28,293 nt of DNA from a virus. Lineage: Duplodnaviria; Heunggongvirae; Uroviricota; Caudoviricetes. The notes under the pieces were generated by a model that worked only from the letters and a program-made list of their open reading frames with translations, did not search any database and had not been told where the DNA came from. Positions 5,871-27,958 of the stretch are shown here, in pieces. The DNA is taken from positions 1-28,293 of the IMG/VR virus record IMGVR_UViG_2667527592_000009, one strand, 5' to 3'. Numbering within the stretch: position 1 is the stretch's first letter; each line of letters begins with the position of its first letter. Position numbers and translations under genes: made by a program.

Positions 5871-6104
5871 ATGCGTAATATTGAAACCCTCTCGACTAAA
5901 ACCGGACCGGATGACGCAGGGCTTAATATTTTACTGACAGAGGCTCGTCTGGAAGAACGCCGGGCAAGGGCTGAAGCAATGGCAGCTCGCCTTGATAGCC
6001 TGGCGTGTCATATCACATCCCGCCAGCTAAACCACGTCGAAGCGGCAGAACTGCTGCGTGTAACTGCTGAAGCAATCCAGAACGAAGCGCAGGAGATCCA
6101 CTAA
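5871..6104 (+). CDS. Hypothetical early-operon protein
   Basis: ATG at 5871 with RBS AGGAGA 8 nt upstream; stop overlaps the next gene start (TAATG). Confidence 0.5.
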   Translation: MRNIETLSTKTGPDDAGLNILLTEARLEERRARAEAMAARLDSLACHITSRQLNHVEAAELLRVTAEAIQNEAQEIH

Positions 6105-6331
6105 TGGCTGATGCAATGGATCTCGTACAGCAGCGCGTTGAAGAAGAACGCCAGCGCCATATTCGTGCTGCCCGTGCCAAAACACCGGGCGTGTCTCGCG
6201 TGCTTTGTATTGAATGTGAAGCGCCAATTCCGCCAGCACGACGCCGCGCCATTCCGGGAGTGCAGCTTTGCATTACCTGCCAGGAAATCGTAGAGCTGAA
6301 AGGCAAACATTACAACGGAGGTGCTGTATGA
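6104..6331 (+). CDS. TraR/DksA-family C4 zinc-finger protein
   Basis: 75-aa ORF with CIECEAPIP...CITCQ (CxxC-N17-CxxC) typical of phage/plasmid TraR-like proteins; stop overlaps next start (ATGA). Confidence 0.7.
6317..6331 (+). repeat. 15-nt direct repeat GGAGGTGCTGTATGA (copy 1, TraR-like stop / ASCH-like start junction)
   Basis: Exact match to 6616-6630. Confidence 0.8.
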
Positions 6332-6630
6332 CAGGGGCTGTGCGTATCCATCAATTAAAAATTGCACCTAAGTATTTCAATGCTGTGGTTGCAGGTCAAA
6401 AGACGGCTGAACTTCGTAAAGACGATCGTGGCTATAAAGTTGGTGATGTTCTTTCTCTTTGCGAATGGAAGCATGGCGTATTTACGGGTAGGGAATGGGC
6501 CGCGGTTATCTCTCATGTGCTTCCGGTTAATGACGTCATGGCAGTTTCAGAACAATGGGTGATGCTATCAATTCGCTCATTAACCCCATTAGAAGCTTTA
6601 GGATATGTTATTGCAGGAGGTGCTGTATGA
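6328..6630 (+). CDS. ASCH/DUF3850-like small protein (putative RNA-binding fold)
   Basis: 100-aa ORF from ATG 6328 with RBS GGAGG; family assignment from recalled motif resemblance only; flanked by identical 15-nt junction repeats. Confidence 0.4.
6616..6630 (+). repeat. 15-nt direct repeat GGAGGTGCTGTATGA (copy 2, ASCH-like stop / Dam start junction)
   Basis: Exact match to 6317-6331; both upstream proteins end in GGAV*. Confidence 0.8.
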
Positions 6631-7484
6631 GCACCATCCTGAAATGGGCGGGAAATAAAACCGCAATTATGTCTGAACTGAAAAAACACCTTCCTGCTGG
6701 CCCGCGACTGGTTGAACCTTTCGCGGGTTCCTGTGCTGTGATGATGGAGACGGATTATCCAAGCTATCTGGTTGCGGATATTAATCCTGATTTAATCAAC
6801 CTCTATAAAAAGGTTGCCGCTGATTGTGAATCGTTTATATCTCGCGCCAGAGTTTTATTTAAGGAAGCAAACAGGGAGGTGGCTTATTACAACATAAGGC
6901 AGGAGTTTAATTACTCAAATGAAATTACTGATTTCATGAAAGCGGTATATTTCCTGTATCTCAATCGTCACGGTTACCGTGGTTTATGTCGCTATAACAA
7001 GAGCGGGCATTTCAACATTCCCTACGGTAATTATAAAAATCCGTATTTCCCAGAAAAAGAAATTCGCGCATTTGCAGAAAAAGCCCAGCGGGCAACGTTT
7101 ATCTGCGCCAGCTTTGATGAAACGCTGGCGATGTTGAAGGCGGAGGATGTGGTGTATTGCGATCCGCCGTATGACGGCACGTTTTCCGGTTATCACACTG
7201 ACGGCTTCACTGAAGATGACCAGTATCACCTGGCATCCGTTCTTGAACATCGGTCATCAGAAGGACATCCGGTCATTGTTTCTAACAGTGACACATCCCT
7301 GATCCGTTCGCTGTATCGCAATTTTACTCACCACTACATCAAGGCAAAACGCAGCATCGGTGTGGCAGCTGGCGAGGGTAAATCAGCAACAGAAATCATT
7401 GCTGTTTCCGGGCCGCGCTGCTGGGTGGGATTTGATTATTCGCGTGGCGTGGATAGTTCTGCCGTGTACGGAGTACGTGCATGA
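6627..7484 (+). CDS. dam: DNA adenine methyltransferase (Dam-like, GATC-type N6-adenine MTase)
   Basis: 285-aa product with KWAGNK (AdoMet binding) and DPPY catalytic motif, [15 protein letters not shown] block as in E. coli Dam; start overlaps previous stop and stop overlaps gene A start. Confidence 0.85.
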
Positions 7485-9895
7485 GTCATGCCGATATGAA
7501 CAACTGCTGCGGCTTTAACGAAGCTGCCGCATCGTTCTCATGGAACAGCCCGAAAAAGGCCATTAACCCTTATCTGGACCCGGCGGAAGTTGCGCCGGTT
7601 TCTACGCTTTCAAACCTGATCACTCTGTACGCTGCCGATAACGAGCAGGAACAGCTGCGCCGTGAGGCGCTGAGTGATCAGGTCTGGGAGCGTTATTTCT
7701 TTAATGAATCCCGTGATCCTGTCCAGCGCGAAATGGAGCAGGATAAGCTCATTAGTCGGGCAAAGCTGGCGCATGAGCAGCAGCGTTTTAACCCGGACAT
7801 GGTCATTCTGGCAGACGTCAGCGCCCAGCCCTCCCATATCAGCAAGCCGCTGATGCAACGTATTGAATACTTCAGCAGCCTTGGCAGGCCAAAGGCTTAT
7901 TCCCGCTATTTGCGTGAGACGATTAAGCCATGTCTGGAACGGCTGGAGCATGTACGCGACAGTCAGCTATCCACATCTTTTCGCTTTATGGCAAGCCATG
8001 AAGGGCTGGACGGCCTGCTGATTCTGCCTGAAATGAGTCAGGATCAGGTGAAACGCCTGTCCACCCTTGTTGCTGCGCATATGAGCATGTGCCTTGATGC
8101 AGCTTGTGGCGATTTGTATGCCACCGATGACGTTAAGCCAGAAGAAATCCGCAAGACATGGGAAAAGGTGGCAGCAGAAACCCTGCGACTGGATGTCATA
8201 CCGCCTGCGTTTGAGCAACTCCGCCGGAAAAGAAACCGCCGTAAACCCGTGCCATATGAACTCATTCCGGGTTCGCTGGCGCGTATGTTGTGCGCCGATT
8301 GGTGGTACCGGAAATTATGGAAGATGCGTTGCGAATGGCGGGAAGAGCAGTTGCGTGCTGTTTGCCTGGTCAGCAAAAAAGCATCTCCCTATGTCAGCTA
8401 TGAAGCCGTGATGCATAAACGTGAGCAGCGCCGTAAGTCGCTGGAGTTTTTCCGTTCTCATGAACTGGTGAACGAAGACGGCGACACGCTGGACATGGAG
8501 GATGTGGTAAACGCCAGCAGCAGCAACCCTGCGCATCGCCGCAATGAGATGATGGCCTGTGTTAAAGGTCTGGAGCTTATCGCGGAAATGCGCGGTGACT
8601 GCGCCGTTTTCTACACCATCACCTGTCCGTCACGTTTCCATTCCACGCTAAATAACGGCAGGCCCAACCCGACCTGGACAAATACGACGGTAAGACAAAG
8701 CAGTGATTATCTGGTCGGCATGTTTGCTGCATTTCGTAAGGCGATGCACAAAGCCGGATTGCGCTGGTATGGCGTGCGGGTGGCTGAGCCGCATCATGAC
8801 GGTACAGTTCACTGGCACCTGTTGTGTTTTATGAGCAAAAAAGATCGCCGCACCATTACTGCTTTGTTGCGTAAGTTTGCCATTCGTGAAGACCGCGAGG
8901 AGCTGGGTAATAACACGGGACCACGCTTTAAGTCTGAGCTGATAAACCCGCGCAAAGGTACGCCAACAAGCTACATCGCGAAATACATCAGTAAGAACAT
9001 TGACGGGCGTGGTCTGGCTGGCGAGATCAGCAAGGAAACGGGTAAATCCCTGCGTGATAACGCTGAATACGTTAATGCCTGGGCGTCTCTGCATCGTGTT
9101 CAGCAATTCCGCTTCTTTGGCATTCCGGGGCGTCAGGCTTACCGTGAACTGCGATTGCTGGCTGGTCAGGCGGCAAGGCAACAGGGGGACAAAAAAGCAG
9201 GTGCGCCGGTACTGGATAACCCGCGCCTTGATGCAATCCTGGCTGCTGCTGATGCTGGTTGTTTTGCCACCTACATCATGAAGCAGGGCGGCGTACTGGT
9301 TCCCCGCAAATATCACCTCATCAGAACTGCTTATGAAATCAACGAAGAACCGACCGCATATGGCGATCACGGTATTCGTATTTATGGCATCTGGTCACCC
9401 ATTGCAGAGGGCAAGATCTGCACTCATGCGGTGAAGTGGAAAATGGTTCGTAAGGCCGTTGACGTTCAGGAGGCGGCAGCCGACCAGGGCGCTTGCGCCC
9501 CTTGGACTCGTGGCAATAACTGTCCCCTTGCTGAAAATTTGAACCAACAAGGGAAAGACAAATCAGCTGATGGGGATACCAGAACGGACATTACCCGCAT
9601 GGATGACAAGGAGTTGCACGAATACCTGCACAGTATGAGCAAAAAAGAGCGCCGGGAACTGGCTGCAAGGTTACGCCTGGTGAAACCGAAACGGCGTAAA
9701 GACTACAAACAGCGAATTACAGACCATCAGCGACAGCAGCTCGTCTATGAACTGAAGTCCAGAGGATTTGATGGCAGCGAGAAAGAGGTCGATTTACTCC
9801 TTCGCGGCGGCAGTATTCCGTCAGGAGCAGGCCTGCGTATCTTCTATCGGAACCAGCGTTTGCAGGAAGATGATAAGTGGCGGAACCTGTATTAA
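7481..9895 (+). CDS. A: Replication initiation endonuclease, P2 gpA family (rolling-circle initiator)
   Basis: 804-aa ORF with HUH-like TVHWHLLCF and two-tyrosine YIAKYISK motifs; position after the early operon as in P2/186. Confidence 0.85.
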
Positions 9896-20830: not shown

Positions 20831-21255
20831 ACCGGTTGCTGCTGGTTGTGCTGACGTTATTACTGGCGGCGCTGGGCTGGCAGACGTGGCGGCTGGCTGA
20901 TGCCAGCCAGACCATCAGCACGCAGGCAGACGAGCTGCAGAGCAAAAGCCAGGCACTGGCAAAGAGCAATAGCCAGCTTATCAGCCTGTCCATTCTGACT
21001 GAAACCAATAACCGGGAGCAGGCGCGGCTCTATGCCGAAGCAGAACAGACCAGCACGCTGCTGAGACAACGACAACACCGGATCGAGGAACTGAAACGTG
21101 AGAACGAGGATTTACGCCGCTGGGCTGATACTCCTTTGCCTGCTGACATTATCCGGCTGCGGAAACGTCCGGCACTCACCGGAGGTATGGCTTACCGTCA
21201 GTGGTTGTCCGCGAGTGACGCCGTGTCGGCTGGATCAGGCAACGCCGCGCACTAA
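20827..21255 (+). CDS. lysB: LysB, Rz-like inner-membrane spanin
   Basis: 142-aa ORF with N-terminal TM segment and coiled-coil periplasmic region; contains an embedded +1-frame lipoprotein ORF. Confidence 0.65.
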   Translation: MNRLLLVVLTLLLAALGWQTWRLADASQTISTQADELQSKSQALAKSNSQLISLSILTETNNREQARLYAEAEQTSTLLRQRQHRIEELKRENEDLRRWADTPLPADIIRLRKRPALTGGMAYRQWLSASDAVSAGSGNAAH

Positions 21256-24127: not shown

Positions 24128-24706
24128 ATGAACACACAACTAACCGAAATCATGCGCCTTATCACCAACCTGATCCGCACTGGGGTAGTCACCGAAGTGG
24201 ACCGGGAAAACTGGCTTTGTCGGGTGAAAACAGGCGACTTAGAAACCAACTGGATCAGCTGGCTGACCCTGCGTGCCGGGAATGCCCGGACATGGTGGCG
24301 ACCATCGGAAGGTGAGCAGGTGGTGCTGCTGAGTCTGGGCGGCAATCTGGAGACCGCCTTTGCGCTGCCCGCTGTCTATTCGAATCAGTTCGCACCACCG
24401 TCGACGTCGGCGGACGCCTGCGTGACAGAACATCCTGACGGTGGCTGGTTTGAATACGAACCCGCCACCGGGCGCTGGTATGTCAGGGGCATCAAATCCA
24501 TGGTTATTGAGGCTGCCGACAATATCACCCTGAAAACCAGTGAGTTTGTGCTGGAGGCTGACCGCACGCGTATTAATAGTGAAGTAGTGATCAATGGCGG
24601 CGTTACCCAGGGCGGCGGTGCGATGAGTTCTAACGGGATCGTGGTTGATGCGCATCAGCATACTGGCGTCCTGAAAGGCGGCGATACAACCGGAGGCCCG
24701 GTATGA
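24128..24706 (+). CDS. V: Baseplate assembly/spike protein V (P2 gpV-like)
   Basis: 192-aa ORF with Gly-rich C-terminus; conserved V-W-J-I order. Confidence 0.8.
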   Translation: MNTQLTEIMRLITNLIRTGVVTEVDRENWLCRVKTGDLETNWISWLTLRAGNARTWWRPSEGEQVVLLSLGGNLETAFALPAVYSNQFAPPSTSADACVTEHPDGGWFEYEPATGRWYVRGIKSMVIEAADNITLKTSEFVLEADRTRINSEVVINGGVTQGGGAMSSNGIVVDAHQHTGVLKGGDTTGGPV

Positions 24707-26555: not shown

Positions 26556-27958
26556 GCACAAAATTTTATACCCTGCTGACGGATATTGGCGCGGCGAAAC
26601 TTGCCAGCGCCGCCGCGCTCGGTGTGCCTTTAAAAATTACCCATATGGCGGTCGGCGATGGCGGTGGAACATTGCCAACGCCGGACGCAAAGCAGACAGC
26701 ATTGGTAAATGAGAAACGCCGGGCTGCGCTGAATATGCTCTATATCGACCCGCAGAACAGCAGCCAGATTATTGCTGAACAGGTGATCCCTGAAAACGAG
26801 GGCGGTTGGTGGATACGTGAAGTGGGCCTGTTTGATGAGTCCGGGGCATTGATTGCCGTGGGCAACTGCCCGGAAAGTTATAAGCCGCAACTGGCTGAAG
26901 GCAGCGGGCGTACCCAGACCGTGCGTATGGTGTTGATTACCAGCAGCACGGACAAGATCACCCTGAAAATCGACCCTGCCGTAGTGCTGGCAACCCGCAA
27001 GTATGTGGATGATAAGGTACTGGAGCTGAAGGTGTACGCAGATGATCAGATGGCAAAACATCTTGCCGCACCGGACCCGCATTCACAGTATGCACAGAAA
27101 GAAAGTCCTACGTTTACCGGGACACCCAAAGCGCCAACGCCAGCGGCGGGGAATAACACCACGCAGGTTGCGACCACCGAGTTTGTTCAGGCGGCACTGA
27201 CGGCTCTTATTAATGGTGCGCCAGCCACGCTGGATACGCTGAAAGAAATAGCTGTAGCCATTAACAATGATCCGAAATTCAGTACCACCATTAACAATGC
27301 GCTGGCACTGAAAGCGCCGCTATCGAGTCCGGCACTCACCGGAACGCCAACAGCCCCCACGGCGGCGCAGTCGGTCAACAATACACAGATTGCCACTACG
27401 GCTTTTGTGAAATCAGCGATTGCAGCAATGGTGGGTTCTGCACCCGCGGCACTGGATACACTGAACGAACTGGCGGCGGCACTGGGGAATGATCCGAACT
27501 TTGCCACGACAATGCTTAATGCGCTGGCAGGTAAACAACCGCTGGACAATACGCTTACCAATTTGAGTGGAAAGGATGTGGCTGGTCTTCTCGCATACCT
27601 TGGTTTAGGAGAAGCGGCGAAAAGGGATGTGGGCACAGGAGATAATCAGATACCGGATATGGGAGCATTCGCTTCTGGTTCGGGATGGTTCAGGCTACCA
27701 GGTGGATATATTGTTCAGTTTGGCACTTTTTCAGGAAACACGACCCGCTTTATCAGTGGACACTTCCCTATACCATTCCCTAATCAGCCGATGGTTTCAG
27801 TCAGTGTTATGTCTGATGCCGTTCAGTCAGCCCCGTCGAATCCTGCCCCGCAGGTTTTGTCTGTAAATTTTGAACATATCAGTAATTCAGCGTGGCGTGT
27901 GGCAACCAGTGATATCTCACAGCAATACAGATTCAGTTATATTTCGATAGGACGGTAG
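26552..27958 (+). CDS. H: Tail fibre protein H
   Basis: 468-aa ORF with conserved N-terminal tail-fibre region and two tandem diverged repeat units of about 70 aa, Ala/Thr-rich. Confidence 0.8.
   Translation: MSTKFYTLLTDIGAAKLASAAALGVPLKITHMAVGDGGGTLPTPDAKQTALVNEKRRAALNMLYIDPQNSSQIIAEQVIPENEGGWWIREVGLFDESGALIAVGNCPESYKPQLAEGSGRTQTVRMVLITSSTDKITLKIDPAVVLATRKYVDDKVLELKVYADDQMAKHLAAPDPHSQYAQKESPTFTGTPKAPTPAAGNNTTQVATTEFVQAALTALINGAPATLDTLKEIAVAINNDPKFSTTINNALALKAPLSSPALTGTPTAPTAAQSVNNTQIATTAFVKSAIAAMVGSAPAALDTLNELAAALGNDPNFATTMLNALAGKQPLDNTLTNLSGKDVAGLLAYLGLGEAAKRDVGTGDNQIPDMGAFASGSGWFRLPGGYIVQFGTFSGNTTRFISGHFPIPFPNQPMVSVSVMSDAVQSAPSNPAPQVLSVNFEHISNSAWRVATSDISQQYRFSYISIGR

Follow-up and report, generated by a model that had tools for sequence, protein, structure and literature searches.

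Deletion between short direct repeats, by RecA-independent slipped misalignment or short-homology recombination, has been described for the Escherichia coli lacI gene and for plasmid repeats, and phage genomes also gain extra genes known as morons, which sit between conserved phage genes and bring their own promoter and terminator. P2-like phages are usually regarded as comparatively homogeneous. In T4-type phages, the non-essential genes of a hyperplastic region lie between copies of a short repeated expression signal, the promoter-early stem-loop (PeSL) (PMC2839356; Comeau et al. 2014, PMC4122927), and the insertions, deletions, and replacements found there between close relatives end in this repeated signal (PMC2839356; PMC4122927). 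Mosaic boundaries, conserved linkers at gene borders, and relaxed homologous recombination have been reported for lambdoid phages (De Paepe et al. 2014, PMC3945230). Here we compare with these systems a stretch of viral DNA of 28,293 nucleotides (nt) (IMG/VR record IMGVR_UViG_2667527592_000009, positions 1 to 28,293; "the window" hereafter means this whole stretch), in which the region under study is the early (replication) operon of a P2-like (Peduoviridae) prophage. The element in question is a small gene with a DUF3850/ASCH domain that lies between a TraR-like gene and the DNA methyltransferase gene dam, with the same 15 nt at both of its ends. Our comparison of related loci suggests that this gene is probably an old but optional resident of a variable slot, enclosed by two copies of a coupling junction at which slot genes would be lost or exchanged, and that homologous recombination subsequently shuffled the resulting alleles.

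The 15-mer GGAGGTGCTGTATGA occurs exactly at 6317-6331 (junction copy j1) and at 6616-6630 (junction copy j4), both on the plus strand and with a repeat period of 299 nt, and no third copy was found in the window with up to two mismatches allowed. The shared stretch is exactly 15 nt long: the preceding bases are C (6316) and A (6615), and the following ones C (6332) and G (6631). It is made up of the Shine-Dalgarno (SD) sequence GGAGGTG, which is a perfect complement of the core of the 16S anti-SD, a 4-nt spacer (CTGT), and ATGA, in which the start of the next gene overlaps the stop of the previous one; such ATGA overlaps are present at both ends of the ASCH gene. In j1 the ASCH-like start lies over the TraR-like stop and the repeat encodes the TraR-like tail G-G-A-V-stop, while in j4 the dam start lies over the ASCH-like stop and the repeat encodes the same tail of the ASCH-like protein. 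An initial annotation, made from the letters of the window alone, had already pointed out these two identical copies over a ribosome-binding site (RBS) and stop/start, the GGAV ending common to both proteins, and the coincidence of the ASCH open reading frame (ORF) with the unit between the repeats; the copies are exact in the window, and the endings and the unit are confirmed by the ORFs.

Given one copy of the 15-mer, a second copy appeared in 0 of 100 shuffles, and at least one exact repeated 15-mer somewhere in the window was present in 20% of shuffles, so that raw repeat length is insufficient as a measure of significance. The significance of the pair rests on its in-register placement at consecutive gene junctions and on the comparative data. 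The window holds two other, unrelated, exact repeated segments: a 17-mer, GTCCGGCACTCACCGGA, at 21167-21183 and 27327-27343 (about 6.2 kb apart), and a 15-mer, TATGAGCAAAAAAGA, found twice inside the replication gene gpA (8830-8844 and 9634-9648, 804 nt apart).

Foremost among the comparative data are relatives in which the gene is missing. Over the region, Cartapus (Peduoviridae, Elveevirus) shares 97% identity with the window and lacks the ASCH gene; its gene order is otherwise that of the window (int, repressor, cox/apl, cII, fil, DUF5347, DUF2732, TraR-like, dam, gpA), and its junction reads CATTACAAC-GGAGGTGCTGTATGA-GCACCATCC, with one 15-mer between the TraR-like gene and dam. The same single-15-mer joint is present in Fels-2, SopEphi, and many Klebsiella phages, and 43 phage records align to the window as two pieces that lie 299 bp closer together than they do in the window. 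A single repeat copy remains in the shorter allele of Cartapus, Fels-2, and others, with nothing else altered. The initial annotation had expected one 15-mer to link the TraR-like gene straight to dam in some relatives, and these phages, together with most of the E. coli prophages described next, bear this out.

The locus was present in 1,238 of 5,426 complete E. coli genomes, and only 77 of these 1,238 carry the ASCH gene; DNA of the ASCH insert was detected in 81 of the 5,426 genomes, at one site per genome. In 1,223 E. coli genomes, at least 80% of a synthetic query representing the precise deletion (3,015 nt, with the 299 bp removed) was covered, and the ASCH-lacking E. coli records listed aligned to this query in a single piece. 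The IMG/VR samples used here were chosen by ASCH or TraR similarity and are hence non-random; among 80 IMG/VR loci picked by TraR similarity alone, 57 were empty, 21 carried the ASCH gene, and one had an ASCH gene broken by the insertion sequence IS1. The empty allele is the majority natural form, and because about 94% of the E. coli relatives with the locus lack the ASCH/DUF3850 gene, this phage type can dispense with it. A window-type ASCH gene interrupted by IS1 was seen in two loci (L075, 3001-4080, and L162, IMGVR_UViG_643348545_000015; a 167-amino-acid ORF with the Pfam match DDE_Tnp_IS1, 1.3e-74), which represents a second, independent natural route to ASCH inactivation.

The second line of comparative evidence concerns the age of the gene. 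The order DUF2732-TraR-ASCH-dam-gpA recurs in deep Peduoviridae lineages, in which the ASCH protein is 58-83% identical to that of the window. Nucleotide identity to those lineages is 70-76% for the ASCH gene and 64-83% for the flanking genes; the ASCH gene has thus diverged equally with its flanks, as predicted for vertical co-residence. In the deep ASCH-positive lineages, the counterparts of j1 and j4 are alike at only 8-11 of 15 positions (those of the MLG42 type, named after Yersinia phage vB_YpM_MLG42, are GGAGGTGCAGTATGA and GGGGGAGCTATATGA), which argues that the TraR-ASCH-dam arrangement is older than the perfect 15/15 identity. An outside donor, in the form of an ASCH allele of 83%-95% identity in another context, was not found. 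Three classes of mobile or accessory element were considered and rejected: a transposon with target-site duplication, because the unit holds only the 100-codon ASCH ORF, with no transposase and no terminal inverted repeats; a moron, because no plus-strand promoter-like or terminator-like site flanks 6328-6630; and an integron-type cassette, because the cassette end forms no inverted-repeat structure and related loci have no integrase gene other than the prophage int, which lies upstream of the repressor. Recent cassette insertion is therefore not supported by these comparisons, the ASCH gene is most likely an old resident of the slot, and loss rather than gain would lie behind the polymorphism.

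This modifies the initial annotation, which had read the repeats as the footprint of a cassette gained, or removable, at the junction. The discrete optional unit, its exact empty allele, and the idea that it can be removed at the junction are supported, whereas an insertion footprint is at odds with the deep synteny, the co-divergence, the lack of mobility features, and a linkage decay that is ordinary for this locus. The annotation had also named a pattern that would speak against its proposal, namely that all relatives carry the ASCH gene between divergent, non-repeated junctions; not all relatives carry it, but the deep ASCH-positive lineages do have diverged junctions.

In the history that we favor, the two 15-mers would be copies of one intercistronic junction in a translationally coupled early operon. 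Recombination or replication slippage between the copies would give an empty allele with a single 15-mer, the exact expected product, and any precise loss or exchange between junctions would always regenerate a coupled operon. Both alleles would then persist, and homologous recombination in the flanking genes would carry them between backgrounds. The minimal efficient pairing segment is 31-34 bp for RecA and 23-27 bp for Red-beta (PMC3945230); 15 bp lies below both minima and thus points to short-homology recombination or slippage rather than ordinary homologous recombination. We infer that the repeat may have served as the substrate of a RecA-independent short-homology event, and if so, the event would be rare and would have been kept because its product is viable.

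With respect to coupling, the junction has the expected structure, with an overlapping stop/start and GGAGGTG placed 4 nt upstream, inside the upstream gene. The record of phage 186 states that translation of A requires translation to the end of orf84, so that coupling is documented in this operon type. By analogy, the junction probably mediates translational coupling, with the downstream gene dependent on translation of the upstream one.

We then considered how the two alleles behave among close relatives, in a population set of 92 unique members (37 ASCH-positive and 55 ASCH-negative). The 15-mer is nearly invariant (3 variants among 129 copies) compared with a flank diversity of 3-4%; j1 is unchanged in all 37 unique ASCH-positive relatives, and j4 carries a single-nucleotide polymorphism (SNP) in one (L042). 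The ASCH state required 13 parsimony changes on the left-flank tree and 19 on the dam tree, both trees being built from short, recombining segments. Mean linkage (r2) between SNPs fell from 0.24 at less than 30 nt to 0.13 (30-60 nt), 0.11 (60-120 nt), and 0.078 (120-250 nt), and that between the indel and SNPs from 0.15 to 0.10, 0.11, and 0.055 over the same distance classes. Since SNP-SNP linkage falls just as fast, the scattered ASCH state was rejected as evidence for recurrent deletion; the scatter is explained by homologous recombination and provides no evidence for recurrence. Nucleotide diversity of the ASCH gene (0.0145) is 2-3 times below that of adjacent genes in the same genomes (0.031-0.041), which would fit a younger insert and equally a minority allele that recombines only with its own kind. 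Overall, presence or absence of the gene behaves like a long-standing polymorphism among prophages that recombine very freely.

Several observations weigh against the favored history. The empty allele is also widespread and old (Fels-2, SopEphi, Klebsiella Gegevirus, and Elveevirus including Cartapus), so that the direction of change is not proven. No recent or recurrent event was seen: a near-identical pair of ASCH-positive and ASCH-negative loci was absent from the 37 x 55 IMG/VR comparisons (the best pair had 24 mismatches in 2 kb), and the 5,426 E. coli genomes held no near-identical ASCH-negative match to the window flanks, the nearest being 97.4% identical. Values of r2 spanning the junction are about the same as same-side values at 60-250 nt, and since they are not lower than within genes, the junction is no detectable hotspot of homologous exchange. 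The reciprocal product, a tandem ASCH-ASCH or circle joint (ASCH 3' end-15-mer-ASCH 5' end, GTTATTGCAGGAGGTGCTGTATGACA), had no match in IMG/VR and metagenome contigs, assemblies being a weak assay for it. Further, much of the 15-nt identity itself could be functional convergence, judging from the make-up of the junction discussed below.

The MLG42-type lineage, in which the repeats are imperfect (11/15), adds to these points. With a dam-internal marker of the MLG42-type 5' end, 67 IMG/VR loci were identified, comprising 53 with an empty slot, 10 with the ASCH gene, 2 with an exonuclease gene, and 2 with a 231-amino-acid ORF; a first scan had hinted that MLG42-type dam never adjoins the TraR-like gene, which the dam-internal marker overturned. 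The dam start is ATGAC in 10 of 10 ASCH-positive loci and ATGAG in 53 of 53 empty ones, and the direct deletion product (TraR tail-junction-ATGACCACT) was absent from IMG/VR and metagenome contigs. The MLG42-type empty allele is therefore no recent derivative of the resident ASCH-positive allele, a result that agrees with a need for perfect repeats in loss and equally well with the repeat being irrelevant to the origin of the polymorphism. The idea that junction identity is set by having empty partners (simple homogenization) was not supported, as 53 of the 67 loci with MLG42-type dam are empty, SopEphi being one such case, and the junctions of this type differ nevertheless, although this test is weakened by the mosaic structure of dam. 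The mosaic segment lies inside dam, at window positions 6790-6960 (dam nt ~165-330), where at least three allelic types occur (L002, L047, L050, L135, and L138) and assort independently of the dam 5' end and of ASCH presence.

One competitor of the favored history treats the repeat as a consequence rather than a cause. According to this explanation, which we regard as possible though on balance improbable, the junctions would be alike through selection for a near-optimal RBS and coupling signal, perhaps homogenized by recombination of ASCH-positive phages with the majority empty phages, in which homology to either flank stops at the single 15-mer; the polymorphism would stem from an old, unrelated illegitimate event and would spread solely through homologous recombination in the TraR-like gene and dam, and the repeat would have no mechanistic part. 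The predicted SD/anti-SD duplexes of j1 (-13.2 kcal/mol) and j4 (-14.0 kcal/mol) are the two strongest of 13 window starts tested, the other 11 ranging from -3.9 to -11.1 kcal/mol, and about 11 of the 15 positions are constrained by the SD and ATGA. The ATGA overlap fixes the frame, which makes the tail G-G-(A/V/D/E/G)-x-stop automatic and leaves only position 8 (C) and the spacer free. The reach of convergence can be gauged from an unrelated late-gene junction, GGAGGCCCGGTATGA at 24689-24703, which is identical to the 15-mer at 12 of 15 positions. This explanation also accommodates the near-invariance of the 15-mer amid more diverse flanks, the retention of the gene by other ASCH-positive lineages whose junctions are only partly alike, the ordinary linkage decay of the indel, and the finding that MLG42-type empty alleles do not come from the resident ASCH-positive allele. 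However, other junctions of the same operon use different sequences with weaker SDs, which indicates that selection does not force the exact 15-mer: the DUF2732>TraR junction (CAGGAGATCCACTAATGG) is conserved and differs in type, and the dam>A junction (GGAGTACGTGCATGA) is conserved and has the architecture of the 15-mer with a different sequence. In addition, the C at position 8 (in an Ala codon) lies outside the anti-SD complement and is nevertheless common to five unrelated tails, and the homogenization that the explanation may call upon was not confirmed in the MLG42-type loci. As for the tails themselves, we see roughly even chances that those of the slot genes share ancestry through recombination.

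These tails belong to the occupants of the variable slot formed by the interval from the TraR-like gene to dam. The slot is empty in Cartapus, Fels-2, SopEphi, and Klebsiella Gegevirus; it holds the ASCH gene in the window and in the MLG42 type, a DnaQ-like exonuclease gene (Exo) in SEN8, Exo with a 61-amino-acid ORF (orf61) and ASCH in loci L054 and L086, and Exo with a 231-amino-acid DUF7415 ORF (orf231) in L254 and L258. ESSI2 phages have the order DUF2732-Exo-ASCH-dam, phage 186 has TraR-Exo-DUF5405-PAPS reductase-A, and P2 has TraR-DUF5405-A with a distant DUF3850 gene (orf91) after A. A general junction, GGnGGnGCnnnATGA, of which the window 15-mer is one instance, forms the G-G-A-x-stop tail of five unrelated slot gene families (TraR, NGGAV; ASCH, [AST]GGA[VIKL]; Exo, [KQE]GGA[KEA]; orf61, KGGAV; orf231, KGGAK). 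Within the window it occurs only at slot junctions, with 0 of 6 matches at the other ATGA junctions, and the same restriction holds in P2-like loci save for a third match in the IS1-interrupted L075 and L162. Because each slot gene carries the junction as its own 3' tail, any junction-to-junction joint yields an intact and probably coupled operon, and the shorter slot architectures can all be derived from longer ones by such joints. The orf231 ORF (L254, 650-1345; L258, 5108-5803) has its first ~50 residues in common with orf61 (L054, 2813-2998; L086) and with a 52-amino-acid ORF (L059); these are either the short and long forms of one family or the result of truncation.

The slot as a whole invites a broader explanation, which we consider unlikely: GGnGGTGCnnnATGA, with its G-G-A-x-stop tail, would be a conserved boundary at which non-essential early genes of Peduoviridae are exchanged, lost, and gained junction-to-junction, with coupling restored each time, as a coding-embedded counterpart of PeSL, and the 15/15 identity in the window lineage would be a by-product of such exchange. 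It is suggested by the confinement of the tail to the slot in five unrelated gene families, by at least five slot architectures that are interconvertible through junction-to-junction joints, by the MLG42 TraR>ASCH junction, which equals a TraR-type 15-mer followed by the ASCH start found after orf61 in L054, by a mosaic boundary located at the junction in SopEphi, and by the PeSL precedent (PMC2839356). On the other hand, recombination across the junction is not elevated in the close population, IMG/VR and metagenome contigs yielded neither circles nor tandem duplications, the motif is mostly an optimal SD in a fixed frame, for which convergence is plausible, 15 bp is under the known pairing minima, and P2 is without the motif at TraR>orf83.

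That the ASCH cassette was instead gained recently at the TraR-dam junction, leaving the 15-mers as a target-site duplication or through Campbell-type integration of a circle with one 15-mer, is very improbable: one gene is indeed bounded exactly by perfect direct repeats, most relatives have the empty site, and the ASCH gene has the lower diversity given above and a GC content of ~45% against 56% for the TraR-like gene, but the gene order recurs in deep lineages, where the junctions have diverged, ASCH divergence equals flank divergence, searches yielded no donor allele and, in IMG/VR and metagenome contigs, no circle or tandem joint, the gene has neither a transposase or integrase gene nor inverted repeats beside it, low diversity is expected for any minority allele recombining only with its own kind, and the low GC is shared by the 5' half of dam. 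Lower ASCH diversity and lower GC were dropped as signs of recent import, there being equally good alternative explanations for both.

The genes around the slot, all on the plus strand, are readily assigned. Upstream of it lies the DUF2732 gene (5871-6104), a homologue of P2 orf80 and 186 orf79. The left border is the TraR/DksA-type C4 zinc-finger gene (6104-6331; Pfam zf-dskA_traR, 3.7e-11; PHROG 54), a homologue of P2 orf82 and 186 orf80 whose product ends in NGGAV. The optional unit is the DUF3850/ASCH-domain gene (6328-6630), with 100 codons plus stop and the end AGGAV; its product matches DUF3850 (1.1e-23, 83.6 bits, cut-off 22.9) and ASCH (1.9e-5, 25.7 bits, cut-off 21.2), both above the Pfam gathering cut-off, as well as PDB 3IUW, an "activating signal cointegrator" (E=7.8e-10), and PHROG 986. 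The right border is dam (6627-7484), which encodes a D12-class DNA adenine methyltransferase (Pfam MethyltransfD12, 2.7e-77), and it is followed by the gene for the 804-amino-acid replication initiator gpA (7481-9895; Pfam Phage_GPA, 2.6e-126). The Pfam, PHROG, and PDB matches and annotated relatives agree with the labels TraR-like, ASCH-like, dam, and P2/186-like that the initial annotation had proposed.

In every P2-like locus examined, dam is the gene directly downstream of the window ASCH subfamily, and this constant neighborhood hints at a functional link to adenine methylation. The searched literature yielded nothing on DUF3850 function in phages or on the slot junction itself. The DUF3850 gene after A in P2 (orf91; L219, 4917-5246) is ~46% identical and lacks the G-G-A-x tail. 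At the N-terminus, ASCH proteins of the window group have two extra codons (MTGAVR/MTRAVR, compared with MTMR/MTVH elsewhere; window 6331-6345), and this extra stretch, ACAGGGGCTGTG, is similar to the junction core GGTGCTGTA and may be a remnant of slippage. A second variable position lies between dam and gpA, where some relatives carry a 273-amino-acid ORF without Pfam match and others a PAPS-reductase gene like 186 orf84 (L022/L023, 4160-4981; L050/L053, 4133-5143). In locus L013 (3300-4343), dam residues 1-212 are fused to the C-terminal part of gpA (residues 662-804) in a relative with a large deletion, presumably a defective prophage. In the GenBank record of phage vB_YpM_MLG42 (PP599993; L002, 2771-4136), dam has no annotation and an ORF is called on the minus strand across the TraR-like gene, which is an annotation gap only.

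The locus illustrates cleanly, from nature, how a phage operon with probably tight coupling can tolerate the gain and loss of a gene. It also reveals that the early operon of P2-like prophages, which are usually called homogeneous, contains a variable slot whose old polymorphism is reshuffled by very frequent homologous recombination. The constant pairing of ASCH with dam offers a lead on the role of DUF3850. If the junction does act as a linker for exchange, it could be used for insertions into P2-like operons without disturbing expression.

Compared with the systems introduced above, the ASCH gene resembles a moron in being an extra, dispensable gene that is present or absent at the same place among relatives, but it is without its own promoter and terminator, overlaps its operon neighbors, and has co-diverged with them. 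As in lambdoid mosaics, gene-sized modules are swapped at gene borders amid heavy prophage recombination, with linkage here decaying within ~100 nt, but the slot junction is far shorter than the homologies shown for Rad52-like recombination. The early genes of coliphage 186 (orf79-orf84 and A) form a homologous operon with the same gene types and ATGA overlaps, and two of its junctions match the motif (TraR>Exo, GGAGGTGCTTTATGA; Exo>DUF5405, GGCGGTGCAGCATGA); unlike the window, its slot holds Exo, DUF5405, and PAPS reductase, with no ASCH and no dam. The likeness to PeSL lies in a short expression signal that recurs on either side of several unrelated, non-essential genes of one variable region. 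The differences are that PeSLs are intergenic promoter-plus-terminator modules, whereas the signal here is a 15-nt SD plus ATGA within the upstream coding tail, and that physical evidence exists for PeSL mini-circles, whereas the searches of IMG/VR and metagenome contigs revealed no circle here.

Mechanistically, the allele pair comes nearest to deletion between short direct repeats, for which a 15-bp repeat and a 299-bp spacing are typical. As in that process, the segment is bounded by exact direct repeats and the short allele keeps one copy; unlike in that process, the repeats here are selected RBS and stop/start junctions, both alleles are old and widespread, and the polarity would be that of loss, with no event observed. 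Taken together, the case is a neat and unsurprising instance of phage modular evolution, and the slot-wide G-G-A-x-stop junction is its most notable part.

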